Positions 6,218-26,072 are shown, counted from the stretch's first letter. The stretch is 64,000 bases of DNA from Candidatus Woesearchaeota archaeon (GCA_945861715.1 CAMAVK010000001.1:458908-522907), one strand, 5' to 3'. Numbers and translations: made by a program. Notes: generated from the letters alone by a model not told the origin.

Positions 6218-9178
6218 ATGAAACATCAACTTTCCTTTATTTTCATTCTATTATGTCTTGTTTGTACTTCTGTGTATGCAGAAGTCCCTACAATTACTCC
6301 TTTTGAAAATATCTACTTTATTCAAGGTATGAGCAACACCTATCAAGTAGAAGTAGATGGTCATGGTGATCAATTAATTTACCGATTAGTTGGTGCTCCA
6401 AATGGAATGACAATTAACAACAACGGCATTATCAGCTACACTGCTAACCTTGATGATCAATTCTATTTAATAGTCGACCTCACAGTAGAAAACCAAAATC
6501 AAGAACAATCAACATTACGCTTTGTTGTAACAACGAGGTCAGCTCTCCAAATAAATAATGTCATGATTGGAACATCAGACGACGATCTTCGCCAGCTAAA
6601 TAATGGTGGCTCTAGCATTCCTTTTCATCCTGGTGAAGAGGTCTATCTTACGTTTCAATTGGATAATGCCTACACCTTAGTAAATAACCCCTATCTCGAA
6701 CACGACATTTCACCAACCATTGAATCAATTGAGTACACGCTTAGCGAACAGGTAGGGATTTCATTTTTCAATGACCATGTGAGTGTGAATCAACCAATAA
6801 GAGCCCAAGGCATGCAGCAATACATCGTAAAAGGTCGACTACCTGTTGACCTTCAACTCGGAAATTATAATATTGAACTCACTGCAACAGGGTTTGATCA
6901 AGATGTACCTGCAAACGAACAAAGGGACACATTTACATTCAGTCTCCCCATCAGACGAAATCCACACGCACTAATGCTCACACCAACAACACCAAACGAA
7001 GTACTCGATAGAGTATTAACTTGCGATGAAACTTCCCAAATAGCAATCCCAGTTACATTTGCAAATACTGGTCAAGTCGATGAATTCGTCGTTGTAACAA
7101 TTGAAGACCATCATGGCAATTTCCTTGGTGATCTGCAATACCCTATAGCTGTAGGTGATGAGACGACGCAGACTGTGGATGTATTCCTCCCACGAGAAGA
7201 TGACAACAGCGTAACTGTGTATATAGCGCGGATACAAGACCAACAGACTATTATGGATAAATACGCCTTCAGTTATAGTTCAAGCGCGTGCTCGTCATTA
7301 AGTGTTGATGGTTCAAGCCCTAACTCCAATGACCTTACCCTACGAACCGGCTCTAATCAAGGCTTTGAACTTCTTATATCCAACCCCAGCAACACACCTT
7401 ATCAAGTACAATGGCGCTACAATAATCAACTCGTAAGCAATGGCAACACTTTCAATCTTCAAAATGTTCAAACGGGAATTCATACCCTTACTGTAAATGT
7501 AATTCAAGAGGATAGTATTGTATACCAAAAAACGTGGGATATCACTGCATCCAATCTACCACTTGGCTTCGATGCATTCACTGGTCCAGCAACAACCAAC
7601 CCTGCCAATATTATCAACATTCATTCAACTCCTCTAACACTCGAAAATAACTTTGGAAAAATAGTCTTCGATGCCAACCTTGATTTAAGTAACATAGAAG
7701 ATCTCTCAAGAGTCATTTCAATTACAAGTGGAAAAGTAGCAATTGATACTATTACAGCACCTGCATTAAATCGTCCAGCTACCATCACATTGTACCGGTC
7801 CTACGCAGATCCAAAAATAATGGTACAACCTGGTTTCAACAACGGGCAACTGAGCATCTGTAATGTATGTGTCATAACTTCAAATCAAGTAAATGCACTT
7901 ACATTCCACGTTCCGAATTTCTCAACATATGTTGGGGTTGAAAACAGCGGTATCGAATTAACAATTAATGAAATTGTAGCAACCAATATCATGCCAGGTA
8001 CTTCAGGTAATACCACTATCACCATCATAAACACTGGCGCTCAAGATCTAACCAACATACGCACGACTCTTCAAAATATAAACGCTAAATACCAAGCTAG
8101 AATAATCCAACAGCCACCTGCCGTGCTACATTCAGGCGAACAAGCAACACTCACACTAAGTCTCTTCATCCCTCTAGACGAGTCAGATGCAATACATACC
8201 ATTGGTACACTTCAGTTCACTTCAACGGAATTAAGTGCATCACAGCTAATTCAAGTTGACCCCACAAGTTATATCGAAATACAAAGTATCAAAGTCAATA
8301 GCAAAAGCAATGGTGATCTCGAATTAAATTCAAACCAGATCGAGTTCAAGGTAAAGAACAATTATCCTGAAGACATGGACGACGTAACAGTTACAGTTCG
8401 CATTCTTGATGTTAATGGTGATGACCTTGAAGAAGAAGTTGACAGTTTCAAATTGAGAACTGGAGATGACAAAAAAGTCACTGTTGACTTCGACCTCTCA
8501 GGCGAAACACTTGATGAAGATAGCTATACCATTGAGATAGAAATCGAAGCCGAAGCAGATGATAACTCCAACCATGATGCCGCAACAGACTTCACTGCTG
8601 ATGTTGACCGTGATCGTCATAACGTTGTATTCACCAGAACAGATCTCTCCATATCAAAATTATCTTGTGAGATGCAAACGGCATTGTATGTTACTATTGA
8701 AAATAAAGGAGAAAGCGACGAAGATGATCTTGAAATAAGAGTTTCAAACACCAACCTTAACATCGCCGAATCAAAGCGTTCCATTGATGTAGATGATTAC
8801 AGTGGTCCAGATCAAGAATATTCCGCCATATTCCCACTTGATCTAACAGGTAAAAATATCGGTACTTACCCCATCAAAGTGGAGTTGCTTCGCGACGGGG
8901 AAGTTGACGAAACACAATCTGTAACTCTTGAGATTACCACCTGTAGCAGCGGCACAACTAAAGCTGGCAGCATAACTGTGCTTGGTGATTCCAACCGTGG
9001 TGACGCGCTGCGAAATCAACTGGATCAAGCCCTCATTCAACACCAAGGAGGATCAAATTCACAAGTGACTGCATCATTTAGAGACTCAAATGTGTACACT
9101 TTGTTCCTTGGCGGACTTGTTTTGTTTGTACTCATCGCCGTGATGTTAGGGATTGCTGTTGCAATAAAACGTAAATAG
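6218..9178 (+). CDS. Large secreted surface protein (986 aa) with a C-terminal TM anchor and short basic tail
   Basis: Signal peptide LSFIFILLCLVCTSVYA. Multiple beta-rich repeat modules. C-terminal LFLGGLVLFVLIAVMLGIAVAIKRK. Confidence 0.6.
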   Translation: MKHQLSFIFILLCLVCTSVYAEVPTITPFENIYFIQGMSNTYQVEVDGHGDQLIYRLVGAPNGMTINNNGIISYTANLDDQFYLIVDLTVENQNQEQSTLRFVVTTRSALQINNVMIGTSDDDLRQLNNGGSSIPFHPGEEVYLTFQLDNAYTLVNNPYLEHDISPTIESIEYTLSEQVGISFFNDHVSVNQPIRAQGMQQYIVKGRLPVDLQLGNYNIELTATGFDQDVPANEQRDTFTFSLPIRRNPHALMLTPTTPNEVLDRVLTCDETSQIAIPVTFANTGQVDEFVVVTIEDHHGNFLGDLQYPIAVGDETTQTVDVFLPREDDNSVTVYIARIQDQQTIMDKYAFSYSSSACSSLSVDGSSPNSNDLTLRTGSNQGFELLISNPSNTPYQVQWRYNNQLVSNGNTFNLQNVQTGIHTLTVNVIQEDSIVYQKTWDITASNLPLGFDAFTGPATTNPANIINIHSTPLTLENNFGKIVFDANLDLSNIEDLSRVISITSGKVAIDTITAPALNRPATITLYRSYADPKIMVQPGFNNGQLSICNVCVITSNQVNALTFHVPNFSTYVGVENSGIELTINEIVATNIMPGTSGNTTITIINTGAQDLTNIRTTLQNINAKYQARIIQQPPAVLHSGEQATLTLSLFIPLDESDAIHTIGTLQFTSTELSASQLIQVDPTSYIEIQSIKVNSKSNGDLELNSNQIEFKVKNNYPEDMDDVTVTVRILDVNGDDLEEEVDSFKLRTGDDKKVTVDFDLSGETLDEDSYTIEIEIEAEADDNSNHDAATDFTADVDRDRHNVVFTRTDLSISKLSCEMQTALYVTIENKGESDEDDLEIRVSNTNLNIAESKRSIDVDDYSGPDQEYSAIFPLDLTGKNIGTYPIKVELLRDGEVDETQSVTLEITTCSSGTTKAGSITVLGDSNRGDALRNQLDQALIQHQGGSNSQVTASFRDSNVYTLFLGGLVLFVLIAVMLGIAVAIKRK

Positions 9179-9911: not shown

Positions 9912-12077
9912 TTATAATATCGGACTTCCATTTGCTACTCCGTCCACTCGTATTGCAACCCCATTACTCTCAAGAACCGCTCCTTCAAACACCACAGTAT
10001 CCCCAAGCGTTACAAGTCCTATTTTCTTAAACTCATCATAGGTAATCAGCGTTGAAGAAACAACAAATCCTCTAGGTGCAACAGCTTCACCAATCTTTAA
10101 CCCAGGAGCTCCAAGAAATGAGATTGCAGTTTTTCCATCAGCAATCATAACCATTGCTTCACTCATCTCACCACGCAATTTCGCAGGCTTCAGCGACAAA
10201 CAAAACACTGCCTCAAGTCCTATCAACTGTTCAACTGATCTATCCTTACGTAACCCCGCAACAACTTGCTTACGTCCACGTGCTCCAAAATCAACAGATA
10301 ATACATACAAACTATCGGCGTTCGAGTGCGCCCGAACATCCACAATTTTCCCAACACACAAATCGAGCGGAAATTTTTTCTCACAAGGGATAGTCTCTAT
10401 CTTAACTGCCAACATTTCTGGTTCAAACAACTGTCCTTTGAAGTGAAAAGAAATATCACTCCATTTCAAACCATGCCCACTGACATCATCGCACTCCCCA
10501 ACAGCTCGATAAACCTTTTGTGAAAATGTGGGAACAATCGGACTCACAATTATAGCAAGATTTCGAGCTAGATTCACACAAAATCCAACAATTGCTTTTG
10601 TTTGAGGATCATTCTTTGTCTTCCATGGCTCCGCTTTTTGGAACATACTGTTCCCAATATCAGATAACCGTAAAATCAACTGCACCGCTGATTTGAAATC
10701 CAAATGCAAATATTTGTCTTTGATTTCAGCAATAAGTGCATCTACCTGGAGTTGTTCTCCACGTGGTATACCCACATGTTCAATAATTCCATAATTTTTT
10801 TGTGCAAATGTGAGAGTTCGATAACAAAAGTTAGCCACATTTCCTAAATATACATTATTATTTACTGCCTGTAAATTCGCAAATGACAAATCAATATCTG
10901 ACACGCTCGTATCTAAGTGTGATGCATAGTAAAATCGAAGTGACTCGCAAGGAAATAATTTTAAAAAGTCATCTGCGGTATAAAACGTACCACGTGACTT
11001 ACTCATTTTCTGACCATTAACTGTGATAAACCCATGCGTTGAAATACGCGGAAAGGGAATTCCCATCCCTCGCAACATCGCAGGCCAAAATAAATAATGA
11101 AAATAAACGATATCTTTACCTATCAGGTGATGAGCAACTCCTCGTTGAAAATAATCCTGCCAGGTAGGGTTCTCTTGATTATGAATTGACCTTCCTTCAC
11201 CCACTCCTCGCGCTCCTCCTCCAACTCCAATGGCAGATCCATATTTAGTATCAAGGAAATTTTTTGTAGATGAAATATATCCAACAGGGGCGTCGAGCCA
11301 TACATAGAAATATTTCTTTTCTCCCATTTCTTCAAGAGATCCTGGAATTTCAAAACCAAAATATGGTCCATCTCGTGATATACACCAATCTTCAAGACCT
11401 TTATTCATCCAATCAGCAAGCCAGTTTTTAATCTCTTTTTGAATGCCAGATTCGCGTGATGCAACCCAAGTAGATAACTCATCAAAAAAAGAGCTTAACC
11501 GAAAAAAGTAGTGCTTTGAGTCCTTAGCTATTGGTCGTCCTTTAACACTATTACATAACGTGCAATAAGGATTAATCAAATCAATGCCTTTCAACACCGA
11601 TGAACATTTCTCACACACATCCCCATATTGATCTGTTGCTTGACATTTTGGACATTCACCTTTCACAAATCTGTCTGGAAGTGAGCGAGCACAATGTTCG
11701 CAATACACTACTTTCATCGAAGATACATAAATATGTCCGCGAGCTCGTAATTCTCTAAAAAAATATTCTGCTAATTCTTTATTCTCCTTTGAGTTAGTAT
11801 GATAATAATTATCAAATGAAATTCCATACTGAGTAAATGTTTTTTGATGTTCTAGCCAGTATTTTTCCGCAAATTCGGCAGCACCAATTCCCGCTTTAGC
11901 TGCATTAATCTCTATTGGTGTCCCATGCATATCTGAGCCACAAATAAAAAGAGTATCATTTCCTATCAGTCGAGAAAATCGTGCATGTATGTCTGTCTGA
12001 ATAAAACCCAACATATGCCCAATATGAATTGAGCCGTTTGCATACGGAAGCGCATATGTTATGAGATGTCGTTGCAT
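9912..12077 (-). CDS. metG: Methionyl-tRNA synthetase with an appended C-terminal tRNA-binding (Trbp111/EMAP-like) domain
   Basis: HIGH motif (SIHIGHMLGF). KMSKS motif (KMSKSRG). Zinc knuckles (CEHCARS...CPKCQ...CEKC...CTLC). C-terminal OB-fold domain (LDLCVGKIVDVRAHSNADSLYVLSVDFG...). Confidence 0.92.
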   Translation of the reverse strand: MQRHLITYALPYANGSIHIGHMLGFIQTDIHARFSRLIGNDTLFICGSDMHGTPIEINAAKAGIGAAEFAEKYWLEHQKTFTQYGISFDNYYHTNSKENKELAEYFFRELRARGHIYVSSMKVVYCEHCARSLPDRFVKGECPKCQATDQYGDVCEKCSSVLKGIDLINPYCTLCNSVKGRPIAKDSKHYFFRLSSFFDELSTWVASRESGIQKEIKNWLADWMNKGLEDWCISRDGPYFGFEIPGSLEEMGEKKYFYVWLDAPVGYISSTKNFLDTKYGSAIGVGGGARGVGEGRSIHNQENPTWQDYFQRGVAHHLIGKDIVYFHYLFWPAMLRGMGIPFPRISTHGFITVNGQKMSKSRGTFYTADDFLKLFPCESLRFYYASHLDTSVSDIDLSFANLQAVNNNVYLGNVANFCYRTLTFAQKNYGIIEHVGIPRGEQLQVDALIAEIKDKYLHLDFKSAVQLILRLSDIGNSMFQKAEPWKTKNDPQTKAIVGFCVNLARNLAIIVSPIVPTFSQKVYRAVGECDDVSGHGLKWSDISFHFKGQLFEPEMLAVKIETIPCEKKFPLDLCVGKIVDVRAHSNADSLYVLSVDFGARGRKQVVAGLRKDRSVEQLIGLEAVFCLSLKPAKLRGEMSEAMVMIADGKTAISFLGAPGLKIGEAVAPRGFVVSSTLITYDEFKKIGLVTLGDTVVFEGAVLESNGVAIRVDGVANGSPIL

Positions 12078-12265
12078 AGTGTATCAAATGAACAGCTAAG
12101 AAACATACTTTATAAACATTTCATATGACTTTTTCTACACTTGAAATAACTCAAAAATTAAAATAGTGTATATCCCTCTTCCACTAAATTTCTTTCTCTT
12201 CCCTCTCTAAAAAACCCTCCCAAGTTGCCGACACATATATATACCATAATTAACCTCTTCCACCT

Positions 12266-13573
12266 ATGAATCAGTACAAGGTGATAATGCTAAGTATAGC
12301 TCTACTTATGCTAAGCACAAGCCTTATTTATTCCATCACCATCATCTCACTAACCGGTGCTGCAACCGATTCTGCCGGTACTGTCGGTTTTTGCAAAGTT
12401 CTCTATCCACGTTTAGACACCATTCCCAATCAAATAGGTTATGTCGGAACACCTTTCACTTATCCAGTCAATGTAAGCCCAGATTGTGGGGAGAGAATTA
12501 CCTTCTCCGGAGTACCGGTTCCTGATCTCTCCTCATTTCATATTAACTCCTCAACTGGTGTCATTGATATAACTCCTCAAGCAGGCGAAGAAGGTGTGTA
12601 TGATCTCAACATCTTCGTGGTAAAAAATGGGTTCGCATTAAACACGACTGTCTTTACATTTACTATCTTAGGAACCATTCGACCAACCAATTTTACGTGC
12701 ATAAAAAACACAACCAACTCCAGTAGAGTATACCTTAATTGGGATAACGTATCCACTGCATCATATTACAAAATCTATTACGCAACCAACATCTCCCAAG
12801 TCGCAAATATGACCTCAAACACCAGTCTGGGCAGCAATGTCAGTACCATATCATTACTTAATCAAAGTGAGTGGAGCGACAACAACCATCTTGGTGTCTT
12901 AAGGCGTTATTACACTGTTGTGGCTGTAGTAAACGGAACCGAAGGATACTCAGACGAACCAGTTTGTGGAAAAATCACCTATCAATACACCGCACCAGTT
13001 TCTAGCACCTATGGTACATTAGCCTCAAACCGTATTGTCCATTATCTCAACACCACAATGGACGCAGAAACGTGGCTTCAAGAAATTCCAGAAGGAAATA
13101 ATCCTACTATCTCTCGATTGGATAAATCAAACGCCTCAGGTGAGTATTATACAACCCATGTTCGTGGTCTACTCGATGGAAACAATTTCAATGTTGATCC
13201 AACCATTGGATATTTAATCACCACAGACAACTATTATAATCAAACCGTAGTCGGAAAAATATATCGACCTCCCTATAATATCAGCTACGACGCCCCTGTC
13301 TCAACGGTGTATGGAACACTTGCTTCAAACGCCAGAGGACCGCATGATAGCATCAAATATTATTATGCTGAAACATTTTTACAAGAAATCCCTGCCGGAC
13401 TCAACCCAACCGTATCACGTTTAGATAAGGGTAATGCCGAAGGAGAATATCTAACAACTCACGTGCGTGGTTTAGATGATGGAAATAATTTTTATATGCA
13501 GCCAGGAATTGGATACCTCATAACCACAGATGGATATTATAATCACTCCACCTGTAGCATGTGTTTTAGATAA
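12266..13573 (+). CDS. Secreted protein: Ig-like domain, FN3-like domain, then two tandem ~100-aa repeats
   Basis: Signal/TM peptide VIMLSIALLMLSTSLIYS. FN3-like segment (RPTNFTCIKNTTNSSRVYLNWDNVSTASYYKIYYAT). Repeats PVSSTYGTLASN...TISRLDKSNASGEYYTTHVRGLLDGNNF... and PVSTVYGTLASN...TVSRLDKGNAEGEYLTTHVRGLDDGNNF.... Confidence 0.55.
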   Translation: MNQYKVIMLSIALLMLSTSLIYSITIISLTGAATDSAGTVGFCKVLYPRLDTIPNQIGYVGTPFTYPVNVSPDCGERITFSGVPVPDLSSFHINSSTGVIDITPQAGEEGVYDLNIFVVKNGFALNTTVFTFTILGTIRPTNFTCIKNTTNSSRVYLNWDNVSTASYYKIYYATNISQVANMTSNTSLGSNVSTISLLNQSEWSDNNHLGVLRRYYTVVAVVNGTEGYSDEPVCGKITYQYTAPVSSTYGTLASNRIVHYLNTTMDAETWLQEIPEGNNPTISRLDKSNASGEYYTTHVRGLLDGNNFNVDPTIGYLITTDNYYNQTVVGKIYRPPYNISYDAPVSTVYGTLASNARGPHDSIKYYYAETFLQEIPAGLNPTVSRLDKGNAEGEYLTTHVRGLDDGNNFYMQPGIGYLITTDGYYNHSTCSMCFR

Positions 13574-13621: not shown

Positions 13622-14749
13622 ATGAAAAGACAACACACAAACATCAATTATCATCGCACAAATATCAATTATCATCATCTAACTTTATTTCTAACTCTAT
13701 TTCTGATTTTACTCATTCCTGATGTATTAGCCACCAGTAAACCAATCTCAAGCACCCTGCAGTTTCCAAGTGGTTCTATCCACTCAGTGCCAATTACTGT
13801 TCACGCCCAAGCAACCGGAACGGGTACTCCTCAAGAATGTATCACCAACCCTCTTGTGTACACTGGAGAGAAAGGAAGTTTTGCAACTAATTTAGATAAT
13901 CTCATAATTAAAAGTGCACCCTCCCTTCGTTGCAATGGACTATGGTCAATTGGAGATAAAATCTGGTATAGCTATACCCTCAACAATCAAGAGTATTCAT
14001 CGCCTGTTGACACCATTAAATCAGGAACCGGCTTACAAGTTCTTATACCAATGGATGTTGGTCCCCTTGTACCAAACCCTTCATCACCCCCTGGATCATC
14101 CCCTGGTAGTTCAAATGAAAACACTAACCCCTCCTCCCCCAATCCTACCACTCCACCCAACGCTGACAATAATGGCAAAATCACAGCATCGCCAGACGCA
14201 TCAACTATTGAATTATTACTTCAATCGACACCCATTGACGACATCGTAAAGGTAACTGTATTTGGCCGAGTAACAAAAGGTGATCTCACAACCGCTACAA
14301 TTCGCATCGAACTACGAAGAATGCCAGACAATAAATTAGTTGATTATAGGGAAGTTGAATCCTCATTTCCATCAACAACAGAAGTAAATTTTGATGTCTC
14401 TCAAATCAAATCTGGTTTATACCAAGTCCAAGCCACTGCTCTACAAAACGGAGTCATTATTGCCGCTTCAGCCCCTGATACATTCACCCTTCGTAGACCT
14501 AATGAAGAGATACCTGCAAAATCAAATCTTGGTGGCATGGCAATAGCATTAAAAAATAATACTTCCTCACTTTTAGACAGCCCCTATCTTGCACTAGCCT
14601 CATACTTTATCTCATTTTTCCTCATACTTATTGCGCTCCTACTTTTCATGTACAAAAGGCGACACTACGCAACACCAATCCCAGTAGAAATAATCGGGGA
14701 AACAGTTGAACAATCAGGGAAATCAGAGAAAACAATCACCAAAAAATAA
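13622..14749 (+). CDS. Surface protein with a conserved two-cysteine N-terminal module, a P/S-rich linker, an Ig-like domain and a C-terminal TM anchor
   Basis: Signal peptide LTLFLTLFLILLIPDVLA. N-terminal module TSKPI...QECITNPLVYTGEKGSFATNLDNL...CNGLWSIGDKIW...SGTGLQVLIP, shared with the 16077 protein. C-terminal ALASYFISFFLILIALLLFMYKRRH. The true start is probably internal because the first 20 codons are a low-complexity NINYH repeat. Confidence 0.55.
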   Translation: MKRQHTNINYHRTNINYHHLTLFLTLFLILLIPDVLATSKPISSTLQFPSGSIHSVPITVHAQATGTGTPQECITNPLVYTGEKGSFATNLDNLIIKSAPSLRCNGLWSIGDKIWYSYTLNNQEYSSPVDTIKSGTGLQVLIPMDVGPLVPNPSSPPGSSPGSSNENTNPSSPNPTTPPNADNNGKITASPDASTIELLLQSTPIDDIVKVTVFGRVTKGDLTTATIRIELRRMPDNKLVDYREVESSFPSTTEVNFDVSQIKSGLYQVQATALQNGVIIAASAPDTFTLRRPNEEIPAKSNLGGMAIALKNNTSSLLDSPYLALASYFISFFLILIALLLFMYKRRHYATPIPVEIIGETVEQSGKSEKTITKK

Positions 14750-14773: not shown

Positions 14774-15757
14774 CTAACATGCAGGAGTTACTTGATACGA
14801 AATAGGAATTTTTTCATTATGAAAATATAATTCCATCTGGGTATAATCAGTAATCACATCAAGCGGTGTAGGGTCAATAATAGTTACAGATAAAACATAT
14901 TCTGTTCGTTCGAGAAGTTCTTCGATTGTGTCAGGCGCGCCATCCCAACAACCAGTATTGATATGATTCAGCCATGTCTGTACTACTCCACGAGGTCTAT
15001 CCATCAAAAAATCAGGCATCATCATTTCCTCTCTAGGATCATAAACAAAGTGGGGACGAAACGTAGTAGAATATTTCAAATCTTTCAAATACATTTCTAA
15101 AAACGAGACATCCTTACATCTTCGCATTAATTGTTCCAATTCTCCATACGTATCCGCGAGCACCATATTTGTGGATTCAAACATTTCCTTTGTCAATAAC
15201 CACGGTGTACCAGGATTAAGCTCATCCATCCACTGCAACAAATGATACAATTCAACTCGTGCATATTTCGAACCAACTTTTGGAAGGGCAGGTAATCCAA
15301 GCATACAAGAAAGACCTCCTTCCTGTCTGGTTTGTACTGGTCGTAAAATTCCAACCCCATATGTTAAAATTTCGAATGCTTGCGCCACACTTGACCACAT
15401 TGGATGTACTCCTCGGCGAAGTCGAATTCCCCCAGGCCTAATATGCCTTGGATCGTGATACAAATATTCATTGCAAAGATTAACGCCACCATTTGAAAAA
15501 AACCACCCTTCTACATCCTTCTGCGATAGGACCCATGCAGGTGTTCCCTCAGGAAAAACAATTTCTGCAGCCACCGGTGTCGGGTGATGGCGCACAATGT
15601 TTCCGTTGCCAATCAACATGTCAAAATCTTTCGTTAAAATTCGATAAGGGGCGTGTTTTGGATGTTCTGGAAAAACAAATTGGTTCATATCACTTTTTTC
15701 TAATCCATATTTAAAAATCAATTCTCCTATTATGTCATTGTTCCAAAAATGGAACAA
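14774..15757 (-). CDS. Hypothetical cytoplasmic protein (327 aa) embedded in the surface-protein cluster
   Basis: Long ORF with coherent composition. No motif I can assign. Possibly a glycan or surface-modification enzyme by context only. Confidence 0.3.
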   Translation of the reverse strand: MFHFWNNDIIGELIFKYGLEKSDMNQFVFPEHPKHAPYRILTKDFDMLIGNGNIVRHHPTPVAAEIVFPEGTPAWVLSQKDVEGWFFSNGGVNLCNEYLYHDPRHIRPGGIRLRRGVHPMWSSVAQAFEILTYGVGILRPVQTRQEGGLSCMLGLPALPKVGSKYARVELYHLLQWMDELNPGTPWLLTKEMFESTNMVLADTYGELEQLMRRCKDVSFLEMYLKDLKYSTTFRPHFVYDPREEMMMPDFLMDRPRGVVQTWLNHINTGCWDGAPDTIEELLERTEYVLSVTIIDPTPLDVITDYTQMELYFHNEKIPISYQVTPAC

Positions 15758-15828
15758 TTAACCCAAAAATAAAATAATTATTTCAAAAAAGGAACATTTA
15801 AAAAGGCAAAACCCCGAACCAAGCCTAA

Positions 15829-16080
15829 ATGCCTGCAGTACTTGATGGACTATTGGATAAAAAGACCGCATCATTACTGAAAGTTCTTTTAAAAAATAAA
15901 GACGAAATATACCATCTCCACTCTCTTTCTAGGGCGTCAAAAGTACCCGTCTCCTCTACTTCTAGAATTGTAACTAAACTAATCAAATTAGATCTGATAA
16001 CAACAAGAAAAGTCGGCAATATGGTCCTATTCCAAGCATCAAATTCTGAAAAAGCAAAATTGGTGGGTGATTTGCTATGA
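15829..16080 (+). CDS. Small winged-helix (MarR/ArsR-like) transcriptional regulator
   Basis: 83 aa. Helix-turn-helix region IYHLHSLSRASKVPVSSTSRIVTKLIKLDLITTRK followed by a beta-wing (VGNMVLFQ). Its TGA stop overlaps the start of the giant surface-protein gene (ATGA). Confidence 0.5.
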   Translation: MPAVLDGLLDKKTASLLKVLLKNKDEIYHLHSLSRASKVPVSSTSRIVTKLIKLDLITTRKVGNMVLFQASNSEKAKLVGDLL

Positions 16081-19000
16081 GTCAATCCACTAAGTCTACC
16101 AAAACCGTACTCCGCCTAAGTTTATTCATAATCATCCTCCTCCTCACATCAGCAACCGTACTCGCAGCTACAAAACCTATTGCTGGCTATATTTTCAAAA
16201 CAGACGGAACAACAGTGGCACCAAACGCGAGCGTACGAGTCTACGTAAACCAAGCTTCCGTGAGTGCAGCAAACCCGTGCTACACAAACCCTGCTGTTCT
16301 CTCCGGTGTAGATGGTTCATGGTCTACTAATCTCGCAAATTTGAAGCGAGCAGATAATGGGAATGATTGCTCTGGATTTTGGGCAACAGGGGATGCAATA
16401 TGGGCAAACGCCATTGGCCAAAACGTAACTCCTGAACACGGAAACCTTTCCACTGCAAATACAACCATCGCATCAGGAACCGGACTCCAGTATCTCTCAA
16501 ACGTTAGTCTCCCTGCAGGGCCGGATCGAATCGCACCAGTAATTCGTCTCATCGCCCCACCAAACGCCACCAACAACACCAACGGCTCCATCCTCTTTCA
16601 ATACAATGTAACCGATGACAGTCTCATTAGTAATTGTAGTGTACTATTCAACGGTACAATAAATACGACAAATACCTCTATAACCAGAAACATCACCATG
16701 AACTTCAGCCTCACCAATATTGCTGATGGCCACTATAATTGGTCTGTTGGATGTTATGATAACGTTACAAATTATAACACCAGTATTGAGACATGGTTCC
16801 TAAACGTATCGAAAGTAGGTCATTATAACTTAAGTCTTGTAACCCCGACGTCCAACACCAGCGTTGAACAGAATCAATTTTTTACTTTTACTATGCAAGT
16901 GAAATGTTATGATGGAAGCTGTGGTGATACAAATGCAAGTCTTGACCCTATTATTCTTGGTGAAGATCAAACAATTGTCTCCCAGAACAAATTTCACTCA
17001 CAAGGATTCTTTGAAAAAATATGGTCTTACTTCGCTGAATTCTTTTCAGGGAATCTCATCACCGGGCAAGTAACAGGTGCGCTCGTTCCCATGGTACCAA
17101 CCACACCATTTTACACTAATATGTCAAACCCTATGAACCTAAGTAATGTAAGTTGTCTAGCTAATATGGCTCAAAATAGCGCATGCAACGTAACATGGTA
17201 TGTCAACGCGTCAGGTCCTGTTGGGACCGTAGCAGAGTTCTGGGCATTTACTAACTCTACCATATACACCGCGCTGAACAATGAGACTCCACATTTATTT
17301 ATCAGTATAGTTGAATCAATCCCACCTGCTATTATTAATTACACTCCTCGAGGAGAGACTTTTAATGTCACCCAATTAATAGAAATCAGTCTTAACACCA
17401 CCGACCCCCAAAACATATCTTTTGTAAAAGCAAACATTACATATCCTAATGCAACCGTTGACCTAATTAATCTTACTCGTGTGGGTACTACCGATAAATA
17501 CAACAGCAGTTACACCATCCCGCCAAGAACTGGGTTCTACCTAATCAAATTTTGGGTAAATGATACAGGAAACAACATCAACGGAACAACTCAAACAAAT
17601 TTCACAGGTCAAGATATTGTCCCTCCTAACGTTACCACCCTCCTCCCTGCAATTTCAACAAGCTACAACACATCCCAAATAATTCAAATATCACTTAACG
17701 CAACTGACGTAACAAATATCAGCACAACGTTTGCCACCATCACTTCACCCAACAGCACCAAAACAAACGTCACCCTAAGTCGCCAAGGCACTACATACAA
17801 ATACAATGGAACCTACACTGTTCCTCCCCGCATTGGCACATTCAACATTACCTTCTTTGCAAATGATAGTAAAAATAATATCAACAATAGTGAAGTTTCA
17901 AACTTCACGGTACTCGATGGCGAATATCCTCGCCTAGCAACCATTGTAGAAGCCCCAACTGACCCGGCAACATACGTATATAATCAAACATATTTTTTCA
18001 ACATTACTATCACTGACAATATTGGAATAAACAATGTTATCATGCAATTCAATAACACAAATTACACCGCAGAAATAAAAAATCAAAGCACCATTTTTCA
18101 ATTCAACATCTCAGATCTCGCAGCCGCAACATACAATTATGTCTGGTATGCAAATGACACCAGTGGCTACATCAATTCTACTTCCTCTACCTACACCATC
18201 AGCAAAGCATCATCAACTGTAAATCTAACTTTATATGGAAATGATAGTAACACCAATATCAGTGTAAACACACCAGTTAACCTAAGCGGGGTACGAATCG
18301 CCGGTGATGGACAAATAGAATTACTTCAAAACGGATCCGTTCTCTCACTTGGCAATACAAGTACCTCCTCGAACCAAACCTATACCACGCTAACTTCATA
18401 TAATATCAGCATTCGACACAATTCTACTCAAAATTTCACTGCAAGTCAAGAAGATCATGTCCTCGCAATAAAGGATTATATTTCACCAAACGTCACCCTT
18501 GTAACCGTAAACGCTTCAAGCGTCAATCAAACGCAACATGTCAGAATAAACGCAACGATAATTGACAATCTTCAAATTGATTCCATTAAAACACAAATTT
18601 GGTTCCCCAACGGATCGGTCCAAAATTTCACCATGAATAACATCAGCTCTTCGTTTAATACCACCTATATCACAATTCTCACATCAAACATAGGAAACCA
18701 CACTGCACAAATTCTAGCTAACGATACCTCCGGAAATAGAAATACCACTCAAAACGTAAGCTTTTGGGTGTATGACATAACTCCACCTGCAGTTACTTTA
18801 CTCATACCCGCAAATCAAACTACTCTAGGAAATGGGACTACTATCCAATTGTCATCAACAACGACAGATAATATCGCAATATCGAGTACATATGCAAATA
18901 TTACTTACCCAAATAATTCCATTCAATCTATCCCCCTCACACTTACCACCGCATCAAAATATAATTCATCCTTGCTTCTAGGTCAACAAACAGGAATTTA

Positions 19001-21080
19001 TCTGATGCAAATATTTTCCAATGATTCAAGTAACAACATCAATGCAACAGAACAAGTATTGTTCTATGTGAACGAGACGGACGGTCCTCCAAATGTAACT
19101 CTAGTTGCAGTAAACGTATCAAGCGTTAATCAAACGCAGCATGTCAGAATCAATGCAACTGTCATGGATGCAATAAGTGTAGATACCGTTAAAACGCAAA
19201 TATACTTCCCTAATGGCTCAATCCAAAATTTCACGATGAGTAATGTGAGCTCCTACTATAACACCACCTATATCACAATTCTCACATCAAACATTGGAAA
19301 TCATACCGCGCAAATTATTGCAAACGATACCAATGGAAATAGAAATACCACTCAAAACGTCACCTTTTGGGTATACGACATCACACCACCCAATGTCACA
19401 GCTTTAATCCCGACAAATCAATCCACTGTATTCACCGGAACCAGCATTCAAATCGCAGCGAATGTAACAGACAACACTGCTCTCTCAACAGTATACGCAA
19501 ATATCACCTATCCAAATAGTTCAATCACCTCATTGCCCTTATCGTTAGCAACAGGTGCCAAATACAACTCTACTCTCACCTTGGGTTCATACAATGGAAC
19601 CTACACACTCCTTATCTTTTCCAATGATAGCAGCAATAATATCAACGCCACCGAACAAACACAGTTCTTTGTAAACACCTCAGATAATGCGCCAGTTGTA
19701 ACCTTGCTAAACCCTGCAGACAGCTATACGAATACTACTTCTACCTATCTTGAGATGAACTTTTCATGTTCTGCAACCGATGATTACGCCCTACGCAATA
19801 TCTCATTATACCTAAGCAATCCATCAAACACCAATTTTAGTCAGAATCAAAGTACTCTTCTTAATGGTACAACTAACTCTACTTCATGGCTACTTAATCT
19901 TACCCAAGGCTCCTTCACCTGGAACTGTCAAGCAATTGACAACAGTACTCAACTCGATTGGGCATCAAACCGCAGTATAACCCTATCTGCCCCTTCTTCC
20001 TCAAGCAGCAGTTCAAGCTCCTCCGGTGGTGGTGGTGGAAGTAGTTCAAGTACATCGAGTAGTAGTGGCGGGCCTATACCACAAAAAAGAGTAGATGTAA
20101 ATGCAACCCCGACATGTCTATGGAATGAAAGCATCATCGCAGGAAATTGCATGTACAATGAAAGTAATGTATTGCTAAATGCTTCACCTACTGAGATCCC
20201 AATAAACTCAAACCAAGGAATATTCAATTTAGTGGGAAGAGCATTTGATATAAACATCCATGCCTTTGGTCTAGACCTTAGTCTACTTTACATTGCCTTG
20301 ATGGTATTCCTCTTGGGCTTATTAGTGCTTTTACTGACCAGACGAAAACGACCATACCTTATTATTCAAGCACCAACCATGGCCGCCCCCGGTGACACCT
20401 TTGATGTAAACGTCAAACTAGGTAATGATTATCGGCCAGTTGTATTAAGAATTTGGAGTATTTTCGTTCCTGAGGGAGAAGTTGGTCTGCTAAACATCAA
20501 AAATATTATCGGCAAAGGCCCAACCTATCGTCTCGAAGTAGACCGATCAGAAATAAGGCGTGGCACCATTCCTGTGGCTATACCAGCACAGTTTATGCCG
20601 GGGAAATATCGAATCATCACGTGTGTGCGGTGGGAATACAAGAAGACAAATGAGCCAAAATCCCTTGTAGAAAAAGGAACAACCCAAGAAAAAATAAAAA
20701 TAACTGCTCATCAAAATAAAATAACGGTTACCCAAACTAAGTTACCTATCCCACCTGCGCTTCTAGTATTAGTGGGTAAACGAAGTCGGCTTCCAGAAAA
20801 TATCGCAATCAACTTACAAACCATGCGTGAAAAGCTCGCGCCAACTGCAAACATTGTTGAACTCGCAAGAACTCGTGAAGAAATTGTACTACGTATGCAC
20901 CAAGCAGAGAAAATGCATAACTTGCGTCTCAAAAAGTTAGAAATCGAAGAGGATATGCGACACACCGAAGAAGAAGGAGTACTACAGCTTCAGTTAACGA
21001 GACTAAATAGTACATTAACTAAGAATGCGGCACCCGTGCAACGCTCAACACAAACACCCACAAAAAGGGACAGAAAGTAA
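16077..21080 (+). CDS. Giant (1667 aa) heavily sequon-decorated surface protein: signal peptide, conserved N-terminal module, about 12 beta-sandwich repeats, poly-Ser/Gly stalk, single TM, ~260-aa cytoplasmic tail with a coiled coil
   Basis: Signal peptide LRLSLFIIILLLTSATVLA. N-terminal module homologous to the 13622 protein (ANPCYTNPAVLSGVDGSWSTNLANL...CSGFWATGDAIW...SGTGLQYL). N-x-S/T sequons occur every ~5-10 residues. Stalk SSSSSSSSSGGGGGSSSSTSSSSGG. TM LLYIALMVFLLGLLVLLLTRRKRP. The cytoplasmic tail ends in a K/E/R-rich coiled coil. Confidence 0.7.
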   Translation: MSQSTKSTKTVLRLSLFIIILLLTSATVLAATKPIAGYIFKTDGTTVAPNASVRVYVNQASVSAANPCYTNPAVLSGVDGSWSTNLANLKRADNGNDCSGFWATGDAIWANAIGQNVTPEHGNLSTANTTIASGTGLQYLSNVSLPAGPDRIAPVIRLIAPPNATNNTNGSILFQYNVTDDSLISNCSVLFNGTINTTNTSITRNITMNFSLTNIADGHYNWSVGCYDNVTNYNTSIETWFLNVSKVGHYNLSLVTPTSNTSVEQNQFFTFTMQVKCYDGSCGDTNASLDPIILGEDQTIVSQNKFHSQGFFEKIWSYFAEFFSGNLITGQVTGALVPMVPTTPFYTNMSNPMNLSNVSCLANMAQNSACNVTWYVNASGPVGTVAEFWAFTNSTIYTALNNETPHLFISIVESIPPAIINYTPRGETFNVTQLIEISLNTTDPQNISFVKANITYPNATVDLINLTRVGTTDKYNSSYTIPPRTGFYLIKFWVNDTGNNINGTTQTNFTGQDIVPPNVTTLLPAISTSYNTSQIIQISLNATDVTNISTTFATITSPNSTKTNVTLSRQGTTYKYNGTYTVPPRIGTFNITFFANDSKNNINNSEVSNFTVLDGEYPRLATIVEAPTDPATYVYNQTYFFNITITDNIGINNVIMQFNNTNYTAEIKNQSTIFQFNISDLAAATYNYVWYANDTSGYINSTSSTYTISKASSTVNLTLYGNDSNTNISVNTPVNLSGVRIAGDGQIELLQNGSVLSLGNTSTSSNQTYTTLTSYNISIRHNSTQNFTASQEDHVLAIKDYISPNVTLVTVNASSVNQTQHVRINATIIDNLQIDSIKTQIWFPNGSVQNFTMNNISSSFNTTYITILTSNIGNHTAQILANDTSGNRNTTQNVSFWVYDITPPAVTLLIPANQTTLGNGTTIQLSSTTTDNIAISSTYANITYPNNSIQSIPLTLTTASKYNSSLLLGQQTGIYLMQIFSNDSSNNINATEQVLFYVNETDGPPNVTLVAVNVSSVNQTQHVRINATVMDAISVDTVKTQIYFPNGSIQNFTMSNVSSYYNTTYITILTSNIGNHTAQIIANDTNGNRNTTQNVTFWVYDITPPNVTALIPTNQSTVFTGTSIQIAANVTDNTALSTVYANITYPNSSITSLPLSLATGAKYNSTLTLGSYNGTYTLLIFSNDSSNNINATEQTQFFVNTSDNAPVVTLLNPADSYTNTTSTYLEMNFSCSATDDYALRNISLYLSNPSNTNFSQNQSTLLNGTTNSTSWLLNLTQGSFTWNCQAIDNSTQLDWASNRSITLSAPSSSSSSSSSSGGGGGSSSSTSSSSGGPIPQKRVDVNATPTCLWNESIIAGNCMYNESNVLLNASPTEIPINSNQGIFNLVGRAFDINIHAFGLDLSLLYIALMVFLLGLLVLLLTRRKRPYLIIQAPTMAAPGDTFDVNVKLGNDYRPVVLRIWSIFVPEGEVGLLNIKNIIGKGPTYRLEVDRSEIRRGTIPVAIPAQFMPGKYRIITCVRWEYKKTNEPKSLVEKGTTQEKIKITAHQNKITVTQTKLPIPPALLVLVGKRSRLPENIAINLQTMREKLAPTANIVELARTREEIVLRMHQAEKMHNLRLKKLEIEEDMRHTEEEGVLQLQLTRLNSTLTKNAAPVQRSTQTPTKRDRK
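18485..19690 (+). repeat. Near-identical 603-nt (201-aa) tandem duplication inside the giant surface-protein gene
   Basis: Unit 1 (NVTLVTVNASSVNQTQHVRINATIIDN...ITILTSNIGNHTAQILANDTSGNRNTTQNVSFWVYDITPP...FSNDSSNNINATEQ) is repeated immediately as unit 2 (NVTLVAVNVSSVNQTQHVRINATVMDA...ITILTSNIGNHTAQIIANDTNGNRNTTQNVTFWVYDITPP...FSNDSSNNINATEQ). Nucleotide strings such as caagcgt(c/t)aatcaaacgca(a/g)catgtcagaat(a/c)aa(c/t)gcaac recur at 18519 and 19122. Confidence 0.85.
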
Positions 21081-21644: not shown

Positions 21645-22364
21645 ATGTCCAATACTAATCGACGAGAAATGCTACTATCCCTAACCTCAATTATTGTTAC
21701 ATCACTACTTGACCCTCTCCCTCAACAAGCTCAAGCAGAGACCCCGCGCGAGTTGAAAAGAAAAGAAGAAGAGCTAAGAACAATCTATCTTTTACAAAAC
21801 GCAAGAACCCAGTATCCTCTTCCCCAAGGCGTACACGTCATTGATTCAGTAAGTGGTGGCCGAGATTTTGGTGCAACCAGGTGGCGTCATGGGAAACGCG
21901 AAAGGCACAACGGTATTGATCTCTTTGTTCATCAGGGAACCGATGTCTACCCGATAATTCAGGGAAAAGTAAAATCAGTAACCAGGGAACGATACGCCGG
22001 CAAATTTGTTACTGTTGAATCTCTCTATCCTTTCAAATTCAAAAAAAGTTCTCCCATTGAAGATGCAATCATCTATACCGACTACATGCATTTACAAACC
22101 CAAACAGTTCGTCCTGGCCAGAGCGCACAATTCAACACTATTTTAGGAAAAGTAGGCAGGACAGGAGTACATGTATCTGGGCCACATCTCCATGTGCAGA
22201 TGTACACTAAACGAAACGGCGCAAAAATATTCATTGATCCACGAAAAGCGCTTTCGAGTGGTTCCTATTACAGTCTCATTGAATCCAGAGGAAAAGAAGA
22301 TGTATATCGCGAGGAATTTAATCGTATCAATTATCCTACGCAGTACGTCAGAACAACACTCTGA
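21645..22364 (+). CDS. Secreted M23 (LytM/lysostaphin-type) zinc metallopeptidase
   Basis: N-terminal signal/TM (LLSLTSIIVTSLLDPLPQQAQA). M23 HxxxD motif HNGIDLFV and HxH motif GPHLHVQMY, with the intervening glycine-rich core (ILGKVGRTGVHVSG). Confidence 0.7.
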   Translation: MSNTNRREMLLSLTSIIVTSLLDPLPQQAQAETPRELKRKEEELRTIYLLQNARTQYPLPQGVHVIDSVSGGRDFGATRWRHGKRERHNGIDLFVHQGTDVYPIIQGKVKSVTRERYAGKFVTVESLYPFKFKKSSPIEDAIIYTDYMHLQTQTVRPGQSAQFNTILGKVGRTGVHVSGPHLHVQMYTKRNGAKIFIDPRKALSSGSYYSLIESRGKEDVYREEFNRINYPTQYVRTTL

Positions 22365-22384: not shown

Positions 22385-23335
22385 TTAATTGGGTCCTTTA
22401 TCAATAATATAAAATATCTCATTTTCAAACTCAAGTATTTCAAATGCCCATCCCAGGCGATGACATAACCATTCCATCCATCGTCGTTTCGGAGCAGTCA
22501 TGGGTTTACCTGACATGGTCTTTGTAGCAAAACTTGCAACGACAAATCGGCAAGGAATTCGTGATAGGAGCGTCTCCGAACGGGTGTGACCGGAATTTCG
22601 ATCAATCACATCCAATATTTTAAAACAAAATGCCACATCACCTTTCTCTATCTCACAACTTCGAATGTCACCCACTATTGCTAACCATTGTTGTACGGAG
22701 TTTTTTTTGCGTGAAGAAAAAAAATGATTCAAAACATCAATTTCTTTCGTATTAATATCATATCCTACATACTTTATGACTTTTAATGGTGCTACAGAAA
22801 CACTAATCGGATTAAGTCCACAAGCTAAATCTACAATTCTAACCCCTTGTTTGTACTCCTGTCCACGTAACCTTACAATGCTTGAAAAAATATCTGAATA
22901 TAATGTTGGATATATTGGCTTTCTCTCCTTTGTTGATTCATGCAGTCCCAAAAGTGTTTGTACATTTCTCACAGACGGATTCTTCAAATATGCGCTCAGA
23001 GCCTCATCAAGTTCGCTTGAGTCACGCGCTCGAAATAAACCATACGTACGACGCATTCTTTCTCGCGTGAGTTTTAAAAGCATCTTAAACTCTTTGGATT
23101 TAGTATGAATCAATGTATCTAACAAATTTGGGTCATCCTTTCCTTTAATCAGAGAAATATTTTTTACTTTATGTTTTAATATAGATGGATTTGAAATAAT
23201 GACTTTTTCAAGTTCACATAATATCACTGTAGGAGTAAGGGCCTTCAATTCTTTTTTCTTTTGAATTTCGCAAACAAGTATATCTTTCCAAGACGTTTGA
23301 CCCTGCGCCACATGTAATAACTTTGACATCCTCAA
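22385..23335 (-). CDS. FmrO-family (ArmA/RmtB-like) 16S rRNA (guanine1405-N7) methyltransferase homologue
   Basis: Blocks characteristic of the aminoglycoside-resistance methyltransferases: LLGLHESTKERKPIYPTLYSDIFS (compare ...HASTKER...LY.FIF), the SAM motif IVDLACGLNPISV (compare VLDIACGLNP), FCFKILDVIDRN, and FATKTMSGKPM near the C-terminus (compare FPT(R/K)SLGGR.KGM). Confidence 0.5.
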   Translation of the reverse strand: MRMSKLLHVAQGQTSWKDILVCEIQKKKELKALTPTVILCELEKVIISNPSILKHKVKNISLIKGKDDPNLLDTLIHTKSKEFKMLLKLTRERMRRTYGLFRARDSSELDEALSAYLKNPSVRNVQTLLGLHESTKERKPIYPTLYSDIFSSIVRLRGQEYKQGVRIVDLACGLNPISVSVAPLKVIKYVGYDINTKEIDVLNHFFSSRKKNSVQQWLAIVGDIRSCEIEKGDVAFCFKILDVIDRNSGHTRSETLLSRIPCRFVVASFATKTMSGKPMTAPKRRWMEWLCHRLGWAFEILEFENEIFYIIDKGPN

Positions 23336-25960: not shown

Positions 25961-26072
25961 CGGGCCCTGAGGGATTTGAACCCCCGACCTCGTGGTACCT
26001 ATCAATTACTCATTCCTTTCGGATTAGCAATGTTAAGAGCCACGCGCTCTAGCCAGCCTGAGCTAAGAGCCC
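25961..26072 (-). tRNA. tRNA-Lys (anticodon CUU) with a ~37-nt canonical-position intron (after nt 37). CCA is not encoded.
   Basis: Minus-strand read GGGCTCT-TA-GCTC-AGGCTGGCTA-GAGC-G-CGTGG-CTCTTA[intron ACATTGC...GATAGGT]A-CCACG-AGGTC-GGGGG-TTCAAAT-CCCTC-AGGGCCC-G. All four stems pair, U33 and A37 are present, and the T-loop is TTCAAAT. Exons are at about 26034-26072 and 25961-25996. Confidence 0.85.

Follow-up and report, generated by a model that had tools for sequence, protein, structure and literature searches.

The question raised by this locus is why the gene for a very small winged helix-turn-helix (wHTH) protein should be placed immediately in front of, and overlap with, the gene for a giant surface protein. 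Both genes, here called C and D, lie in a stretch of 64,000 nucleotides (nt) from Candidatus Woesearchaeota archaeon (GCA_945861715.1 CAMAVK010000001.1:458908-522907), hereafter the window, from whose first letter all positions are counted. A first-pass annotation had described the pair as a regulator translationally coupled to a possible signalling adhesin of 1667 amino acids (aa). The answer that we favor, with moderate confidence and on comparative grounds, is that C would be a dimeric autoregulator heading a leaderless C–D operon for a glycan-shielded surface fibril. The source organism is a small-genome DPANN archaeon of the Woesearchaeota/Nanoarchaeota type, and homologues of D carry the labels Woesearchaeota, Nanoarchaeota, Nanobdellota or Aenigmarchaeota; the D protein of the window was matched exactly in public data (1667 aa, unnamed), on a contig of 796,844 bp that was reported in two samples.

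The C–D junction

15829-16080, plus strand: gene C, an 83-aa wHTH protein and proposed dimeric autoregulator
16062-16071, plus strand: Shine-Dalgarno-like motif GGTGGGTGAT, read from the sequence, within the last codons of C and 5 nt 5′ of the D start codon
16077-21080, plus strand: gene D, a 1667-aa type-I membrane surface glycoprotein (glycosylation predicted)

Both open reading frames (ORFs) were found, with 83 and 1667 aa, and, as the first-pass annotation had stated, they overlap by the four nucleotides ATGA (16077-16080, plus strand), which serve as stop of the one and start of the other. The tight coupling that it had noticed is in fact stronger than could be known from a single sequence, as C was found directly upstream of D, abutting or overlapping it, in 12 of 14 distinct D-family loci. 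Eight of these show a 4-nt overlap, two an overlap of 8 nt and one an overlap of 11 nt, and in the twelfth the genes are 2 nt apart; at most of the orthologous junctions, GGAGG- or GGTGA-like motifs stand where the window has its Shine-Dalgarno-like motif. Nor is D the only partner, since in L008, L009, L023 and L024 a C-family gene overlaps a gene that is unrelated to D and whose product starts with a signal peptide or a transmembrane (TM) helix; a 178-aa member of a C-family subclass in L022 is not coupled to a surface- or membrane-protein gene. In the C-bearing loci, C is parted from the next gene upstream (B, see below) either by an unrelated inserted gene, as in the window, or by intergenic DNA measuring 125 to several hundred nt. 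In L013 and L017, which have no C, D follows B within 50 nt, leaving no separate promoter. Together this argues that C and D form a transcription unit of their own.

The small winged-helix protein and its family

The best curated matches of the C protein were HTH_IclR (16.6 bits, cut-off 22), MarR_2 (16.7, cut-off 27) and TrmB (14.9, cut-off 25.6) in Pfam, and HTH_metalloreg, the ArsR/SmtB model, in NCBIfam (18.1, cut-off 55), the last of which gave 38.5 bits with a fused two-domain homologue from L005. A profile built from six family members matched the solved structure of Lmo1102 (E = 3e-4) over profile positions 32-82, an alignment that spans the recognition helix, the wing and the C-terminal helix, and matched more weakly (E 0.19-0.6) the 122-residue chains of the cadmium efflux accessory protein, a known ArsR/SmtB repressor. 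As the C protein has no Cys and only two His (H29 and H31), it lacks a metal site, and with no extra domain it has no ligand-binding extension either. The family is thus best described as unannotated, seemingly of the wHTH transcription-factor kind and outside the curated families.

An exhaustive search of 1.84 billion representatives returned only 121 clusters of this family; when metagenomes were scanned with the wHTH protein as a single sequence, no relative came up. Among the best 16 representatives, 11 were fused two-domain proteins and one had four domains. Two-wHTH fusions occupy the position of C in L005 and L006, and in L008 (83-997) a 304-aa protein of four tandem wHTH domains overlaps, again by ATGA, the gene for a sequon-bearing membrane protein (sequon: N-x-S/T); its four domains would match two adjacent palindromes of the kind described below. 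Since the relatives are two- and four-domain fusions, which fit palindromes and palindrome pairs, the single-domain C presumably works as a dimer.

Promoter and candidate operators

15737-15758, unstranded: distal operator candidate, the perfect palindrome ATTGTTCCA-AAAA-TGGAACAAT
15780-15795, unstranded: proximal operator candidate ATTTCAAAAAAGGAAC, degenerate, abutting the TATA box, with its right arm overlapping the position of the transcription factor B recognition element (BRE)
15797-15804, plus strand: archaeal TATA box TTTAAAAA, 32 nt before the C start codon

A BRE/TATA element (gaaacaTTTAAAAag) was observed upstream of C in each locus examined, its TATA box preceding the start codon by 29-33 nt, and because this distance matches the usual archaeal spacing between TATA box and transcription start site, we infer that the C transcript is leaderless or nearly so. 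Upstream of this element, and abutting it, phased palindromes were observed in 13 loci as candidate binding sites. These are short, fit the pattern xxxCA-N4-TGxxx and number two or three per locus, with a period of ~20 bp; the nearest arm lies over the BRE position, and they cluster at -17, -37 and -57 from the TATA box. When perfect 5+5 palindromes (spacer 4-6 nt) were counted in 9 loci x 80 nt, 23 were obtained vs 1.7 ± 1.4 in shuffled sequence, and they were present in 8 of the 9 loci vs 1.4 expected. The half-site type is locus-specific (TTCCA, TACCA or TTTCA), with the same type at the distal and proximal sites of one locus.

The distal site of the window falls in the divergent promoter region common to C and to a minus-strand gene at 14774-15757, which lies between B and C and has no Pfam or NCBIfam match. 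The equivalent of the proximal site is perfect in L004, L005 and L006. The same architecture of palindromes and TATA box also precedes the L022 gene, which is unlinked to a surface gene; as this uncoupled gene has them too, the sites would appear to travel with the wHTH gene itself, which reads as a signature of autoregulation. A search of the window for further operator copies, i.e., for a wider regulon, gave the distal core GTTCCAAAAATGGAAC as the sole match without mismatch, together with 31 matches at three or fewer mismatches vs 27 by chance, i.e., a count at chance level. One match with three mismatches, at 12257-12272 over the start of gene A, was considered as an operator and rejected as unconvincing.

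Architecture and sequon load of the giant protein

16077-16166, plus strand: signal peptide (aa 1-30), read from the sequence, with predicted cleavage between VLA and ATKP
16167-16526, plus strand: tip domain (aa 31-150), a transthyretin-like / carboxypeptidase-regulatory-like beta-sandwich with two invariant cysteines
17325-19988, plus strand: array of immunoglobulin (Ig)-like modules of ~100 aa (iterated internal-repeat hidden Markov model)
19995-20072, plus strand: Ser/Gly stalk (aa 1307-1332), with a similar run in the orthologue P0003
20271-20339, plus strand: TM anchor (aa 1399-1421) followed by RRKR, modelled as a helix with a predicted local distance difference test score (pLDDT) of 83-93

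The sequon saturation of D, also noticed at first pass, was borne out by comparison with 2000 composition-preserving shuffles, as the 1398-aa ectodomain carries 125 sequons vs 43.4 ± 5.3 (maximum 62), i.e., more than 15 standard deviations above the mean. This amounts to ~9 sequons per 100 aa, or about one per 11 residues, and takes up 69% of the ectodomain Asn; to our knowledge, the load is among the densest. For the whole protein, the density is 7.6 per 100 aa vs ~0.4 in the cytoplasmic proteins of the window. The total is 126, with a single sequon in the 246-aa tail, and every D homologue starts with a signal peptide, is rich in sequons in its ectodomain and has, beyond a C-terminal TM helix, a tail that is free of them. 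This partition (125 outside, 1 inside) and its recurrence in the homologues support a type-I topology, and the pattern fits an N-glycosylation confined to the outside part of D. Two other proteins of the window also combine a signal peptide with a C-terminal TM helix and carry few sequons (6218-9178, plus strand, 986 aa, 2 sequons; 42433-43632, plus strand, 399 aa, 14 sequons), with densities given as 0.2 and 1.0 per 100 aa, and sequon loading is therefore protein-specific and not general to the secretome.

The N-terminal 120 aa of mature D are the best-conserved part of the family (38-80% identity in ~15 homologues), and 14 homologues share A[TS]KPI[AS]G as the start of the mature protein. 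The tip domain is modelled with confidence (pLDDT 86, predicted template modelling score 0.74). Many surface proteins have a transthyretin-like fold, among them CnaB pilins and SlaB, the S-layer anchor of Sulfolobus, and for this reason it gives no specific function. Six Ig-like modules are clear (aa 417-514, 517-615, 804-901, 904-1001, 1005-1102 and 1105-1202) and five are weak in all (within aa 619-800 and 1206-1304, plus one upstream at aa 154-275); the match of D to Big_7 (PF17957) reaches 21.1 bits, the cut-off being 24.1, and several homologues have precomputed PF17957 matches. The Ser/Gly stalk and the one TM helix that had been proposed were found as listed. There is no PGF-CTERM motif in D, the anchor being the TM helix, and no S-layer model is among its Pfam and NCBIfam matches.

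The 603-nt tandem duplication

18486-19088, plus strand: duplicated unit 1 (aa 804-1004), two Ig-like modules
19089-19691, plus strand: duplicated unit 2 (aa 1005-1205), two Ig-like modules

The first-pass annotation had placed two 201-aa units at 18485-19087 and 19088-19690, with a DNA identity of 85-90% that made the duplication appear fresh and length variation probable. The period of 603 nt and the place were right, with the in-frame units lying as listed above; the age was not. The two units are 67.7% identical in DNA, 70.6% in protein and 43% at third codon positions, their longest identical run is 32 nt, and 87% is reached only in 60-nt stretches at ~18660-18780. Fourfold-degenerate sites are 43% identical vs 30% by chance, which corresponds to a Jukes-Cantor distance of ~1.06 per site. 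Because synonymous sites are near saturation while the protein identity is 70.6%, the duplication is old, and selection at the protein level has maintained it. In P0002, the nearest orthologue (69% identical), the unit occurs once, with identities of 67% and 64% to the two units of D, themselves 71% identical to each other, so that the duplication is about the age of the split from this orthologue. The sequons are under purifying selection, because 19 of 20-22 positions are common to units that are only 71% identical.

A recent, length-variable (contingency-like) duplication, or the assembly artefact that the annotation had itself named as its refutation, is refuted here by the divergence of the copies. 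An exact, in-frame period of 603 nt, the 32-nt identical run with the short 87% stretches, and the single copy in the nearest orthologue would all suit a recent event, and yet the divergence stands at about one synonymous substitution per site and Tandem Repeats Finder reported nothing on gene D, the copies being too diverged. An artefact is countered by copies that differ at about a third of positions, too many for collapse or duplication by an assembler, and by the report of the contig in two samples. The length of D does differ between species (1126-2481 aa), not as a recent copy-number change. As the repeat is neither recent nor unstable, no copy-number study is warranted.

The cytoplasmic tail

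20355-20639, plus strand: tail beta-sandwich (aa 1427-1521), seven strands in an AlphaFold2 model, pLDDT ~60-76
20796-21029, plus strand: charged C-terminal helix (aa 1574-1651), modelled with pLDDT up to 93

An intracellular coiled-coil tail of ~260 aa had been proposed, of which the sizeable cytoplasmic tail was retained (246 aa) and the coiled coil was not, as there is no heptad signal in the helix (hydrophobic occupancy of a/d positions 0.45 vs 0.51 shuffled, P = 0.95) and its coiled-coil nature is unproven. In the model of the tail, a beta-sandwich of ~95 aa is joined by a disordered linker (~50 aa) to a single helix of ~78 aa. Foldseek comparison of the tail model with the PDB gave generic beta-sandwich matches of the Ig, fibronectin type III (FnIII) and macroglobulin kinds, none at E <= 0.001. 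A homologue search with the tail alone returned nothing, D itself included, which reflects a limit of the word index and not absence. The beta-sandwich is conserved in P0002, P0003 and P0004, and in a separate ORF of L005. In the latter (9925-10746), beta-sandwich and helix are encoded by a separate, overlapping ORF, the frame changing just past a KKKK/poly-A run, probably owing to a frameshift, whether real or a sequencing error.

The A-B-C-D cluster

12266-13573, plus strand: gene A, a 435-aa secreted protein with a signal peptide, no membrane anchor and 18 sequons (TM scan and sequon count)
13622-14749, plus strand: gene B, a 375-aa membrane-anchored protein with an N-terminal domain, a Pro/Ser-rich stalk and a C-terminal TM helix at ~aa 321

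The order A-B-C-D is repeated in reference genomes and metagenomes. Gene A is syntenic across all related loci and is the best-conserved protein of the cluster (42-63% identity); it is internally duplicated, with a ~100-aa C-terminal unit that carries the motif GE[YF]LTTHVRG...DGN[ND]F, and it belongs to no Pfam family, the He_PIG and fn3 matches being below threshold. Gene B is likewise syntenic in all loci, with ~350 aa as its general length, and its N-terminal domain, 35% identical to the D tip over 125 aa, is a paralogue of that tip. Between B and C, other genomes hold different genes or none, and the B/C junction therefore tolerates insertions.

An STT3/AglB-like oligosaccharyltransferase gene was observed directly 5′ of gene A in L004 (1-2101, the same contig as L012). 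Just 3′ of gene D in the window, an M23 (LytM-type) peptidase gene (21645-22364, plus strand) is followed by a gene for an FmrO-like 16S rRNA methyltransferase (22385-23335, minus strand). The M23 family is best known from bacterial cell-wall hydrolases; such a peptidase is unexpected for a DPANN archaeon and may have a bearing on its lifestyle.

A model for the C–D operon and its alternatives

The model that we favor places C and D as a two-gene operon, with its own promoter, inside a DPANN surface-protein cluster. Transcription would start ~25 nt 3′ of the BRE/TATA element, so that the mRNA begins at or beside the C start codon. A dimer of C would bind the palindrome array (xTTCCA-N4-TGGAAx here) at ~20-bp spacing, on one face of the DNA, as the comparison of loci suggests, and since the nearest palindrome covers BRE/TATA, its occupancy would hinder the TATA-binding protein (TBP) and transcription factor B (TFB) and lead to self-repression of the operon, the preferred sign of regulation. 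D would then be translated from the same mRNA by way of the ATGA overlap and the Shine-Dalgarno-like motif in the end of C, which would lock the output of the regulator to the synthesis of the giant protein and thereby put a very costly product under negative feedback. The D protein is predicted to be exported by its signal peptide, anchored by the one C-terminal TM helix, and raised off the membrane on its Ser/Gly stalk as a fibril with ~11 Ig-like modules, a glycan shield of up to 125 sites and the conserved tip; assuming ~4 nm per module, the fibril would measure several tens of nm. The tip might dock A or a host ligand at the cell surface, a speculation prompted by the paralogous tip that B carries on a short stalk and by the secretion of A without an anchor, and the tail, with its beta-sandwich and long helix, could be a module for internal attachment or oligomerisation, which is a guess at its function.

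Several observations weigh against this model or parts of it. The C protein scores under every curated wHTH threshold of Pfam and NCBIfam. Two related loci, L013 and L017, do without the regulator. The proximal site of the window has three mismatches, and its centre lies 40 bp from that of the perfect distal site, which, being upstream, could equally fit activation. Palindromes arise readily in intergenic DNA that is rich in AT, and those seen here could be bound by a different factor. A perfect xxxCA-N4-TGxxx site was found in 9 of 13 loci, the background being 0.01 per 130 nt in the window, for a class that was refined post hoc, so that these probabilities are optimistic and the 5+5 count is the unbiased test. 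When the recognition-helix residues (STSR, STAR or STFR) were set against the half-site types (TTCCA, TACCA or TTTCA), no clean code emerged, only a loose trend. A counterpart of the STT3/AglB-like gene of L004 was not found in the 64-kb window, and the proposed glycosylation rests on the sequons. Finally, the sequence alone does not decide between an adhesin, a coat protein and an S-layer component as the role of D.

The last of these roles leads to an alternative that we consider unlikely while taking it more seriously than those that follow, in which the cluster would be an S-layer system with A as the canopy and B and D as anchors sharing a tip domain, by analogy with SlaA/SlaB of Sulfolobales, and with C setting the level of D. 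In this reading, which agrees with all that was observed, D would be a structural lattice or anchor protein and no adhesin. The conserved order of an anchorless secreted protein followed by an anchored one would suit it, as would L014, where A and B are present and D is absent within 10 kb downstream, suggesting an A-B core; moreover, Ig-like folds, many sequons and a C-terminal TM helix are the traits by which DPANN S-layer candidates were nominated (bioRxiv 10.1101/2023.10.27.564410). However, no similarity to any S-layer family was seen, the transthyretin-like fold is generic, and the length of D, which between close lineages lies anywhere from 1126 to 2481 aa, varies in a way that is seen more typically in stalk-like adhesins than in the subunits of a lattice. 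The strict coupling of C to downstream genes whose products, although unrelated, all start with a signal peptide or TM segment, together with its sub-threshold scores, could also be explained if C were not a transcription factor at all and served instead as a cytoplasmic helper of D, for instance by binding the nascent chain or the mRNA and so assisting the targeting of a very long secretory protein, the palindromes then being structural or the sites of another regulator. This explanation is very improbable, given that the profile aligns recognition helix, wing and C-terminal helix with the solved Lmo1102 structure, that the phased palindromes follow the wHTH gene even where a secreted partner is missing (L022), and that the two- and fourfold fused forms fit palindromic DNA sites.

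The signalling adhesin of the first-pass annotation would take the form of a contact sensor, in which the tail of D sequesters C at the membrane, much as a membrane anchor restrains a transcription factor (an anti-sigma-like logic), and engagement of the ectodomain, or mechanical load on it, alters transcription upon host contact. Such a circuit could draw on the synthesis of C and D from one mRNA in a fixed proportion, on a folded cytoplasmic domain with a long helix, unusual for a surface protein, and on the conservation of the D-type tail in five lineages. It is weakened by the orthologues that retain C, whose tails measure 20, ~85, ~245 or 473 aa and are unrelated in sequence (20 aa in P0009; ~85 aa, without similarity to the D tail, in P0006, P0008, P0010 and P0012), and because the tail type varies among them, a conserved partnership of tail and regulator is unlikely. 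C-family genes are in addition coupled to unrelated membrane proteins, and the L022 subclass has the same operators with no membrane partner, which leaves contact sensing improbable. We regard as a similarly long shot a combined scheme in which the wHTH protein would be a DPANN-wide leader regulator that meters the production of membrane and surface proteins, and, in the lineages that have it, the D-type tail would capture this regulator at the membrane so that the amount of correctly inserted or host-engaged fibril feeds back on transcription; if true, it would be a contact-sensing circuit in an episymbiotic archaeon.

Comparison with known systems

The usual view of DPANN archaea is that they live on host cells to which they are attached, with their surface proteins presumed to be the points of contact, and we know of no DPANN surface protein that has been characterised, nor of any work on how such proteins are regulated. 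Up to 2023 no DPANN S-layer protein had been determined, and the candidates MJ1_0707, MJ1_0299 and MJ1_0309 of Nanobdella aerobiophila have 13-17 sequons and 4-5 Ig-like folds (bioRxiv 10.1101/2023.10.27.564410). Like D, these candidates come from a DPANN archaeon and combine a signal peptide with several Ig-like folds, numerous sequons and a TM helix at the C-terminus, their function being deduced from sequence and expression only; D differs from them, as they are described, in its ~11 modules, 125 sequons, folded 246-aa tail and coupled wHTH gene. The SlaA/SlaB pair of Sulfolobales shows no sequence homology to A, B or D; A has just 435 aa, and a wHTH gene is intercalated here. The coiled coil of SlaB is extracellular, unlike the long helix of D, which follows the TM segment on the cytoplasmic side.

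The archaeal repressors MDR1, Phr and TrmB block the recruitment of TBP/TFB or of the polymerase at BRE/TATA. With repressors of the ArsR/SmtB, MarR and IclR types, C shares a winged-helix domain of ~80 aa, a palindrome candidate of dimer size, a site over the BRE/TATA of its own operon and the first position of the regulator gene. It differs from them in its sub-threshold scores, in lacking a metal site or ligand extension, in its single, double and quadruple domain forms and in its cargo, a giant secreted protein in place of a detoxification or metabolic gene. The adhesin-like proteins of Methanobrevibacter and Methanosphaera (PMC11532034) and the giant fibrillar Big-domain and RTX-type adhesins of bacteria resemble D in their strings of ~100-aa beta-sandwiches with a distal domain and in a module number that varies among relatives through duplication of one or two modules. 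What sets D apart from giant Ig-repeat adhesins is its C-terminal TM anchor, its N-terminal tip and its extreme sequon density. Many bacterial adhesins have near-identical repeats, whereas those of D are old and diverged.

A described pairing of a wHTH gene with a surface-protein gene in DPANN archaea was not found in the searchable literature, relative to which the conserved C–D coupling, the operator array and the fused multi-domain forms are new, both halves being of known kinds. The locus offers a compact, testable module, i.e., a wHTH family whose operator is clearly predicted (TTCCA-N4-TGGAA sites phased at ~20 bp over BRE/TATA), a conserved translational coupling to giant secreted proteins, and sequon positions that have outlasted an ancient duplication. 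Recombinant protein would suffice to test the regulator and its DNA site, with no need to cultivate the organism, and the A-B-C-D cluster supplies candidates for the envelope or adhesion machinery of Woesearchaeota-like archaea.

Other observations

The GC skew is negative in each 2-kb block of the window (1-64000; cumulative -6.1), and the fourfold-degenerate sites of gene D have 9% G vs 26% C, a strong strand or codon bias. A 112-nt tRNA at 25961-26072 (minus strand) was detected by the Rfam tRNA model (50 bits) and missed by ARAGORN; because of its length, it probably contains an intron. Several metagenome-assembled genome (MAG) records with the DPANN-type cluster (L010, L011, L012, L019 and L021) are titled ‘uncultured Methanosarcinales archaeon’, which is probably a mislabel.

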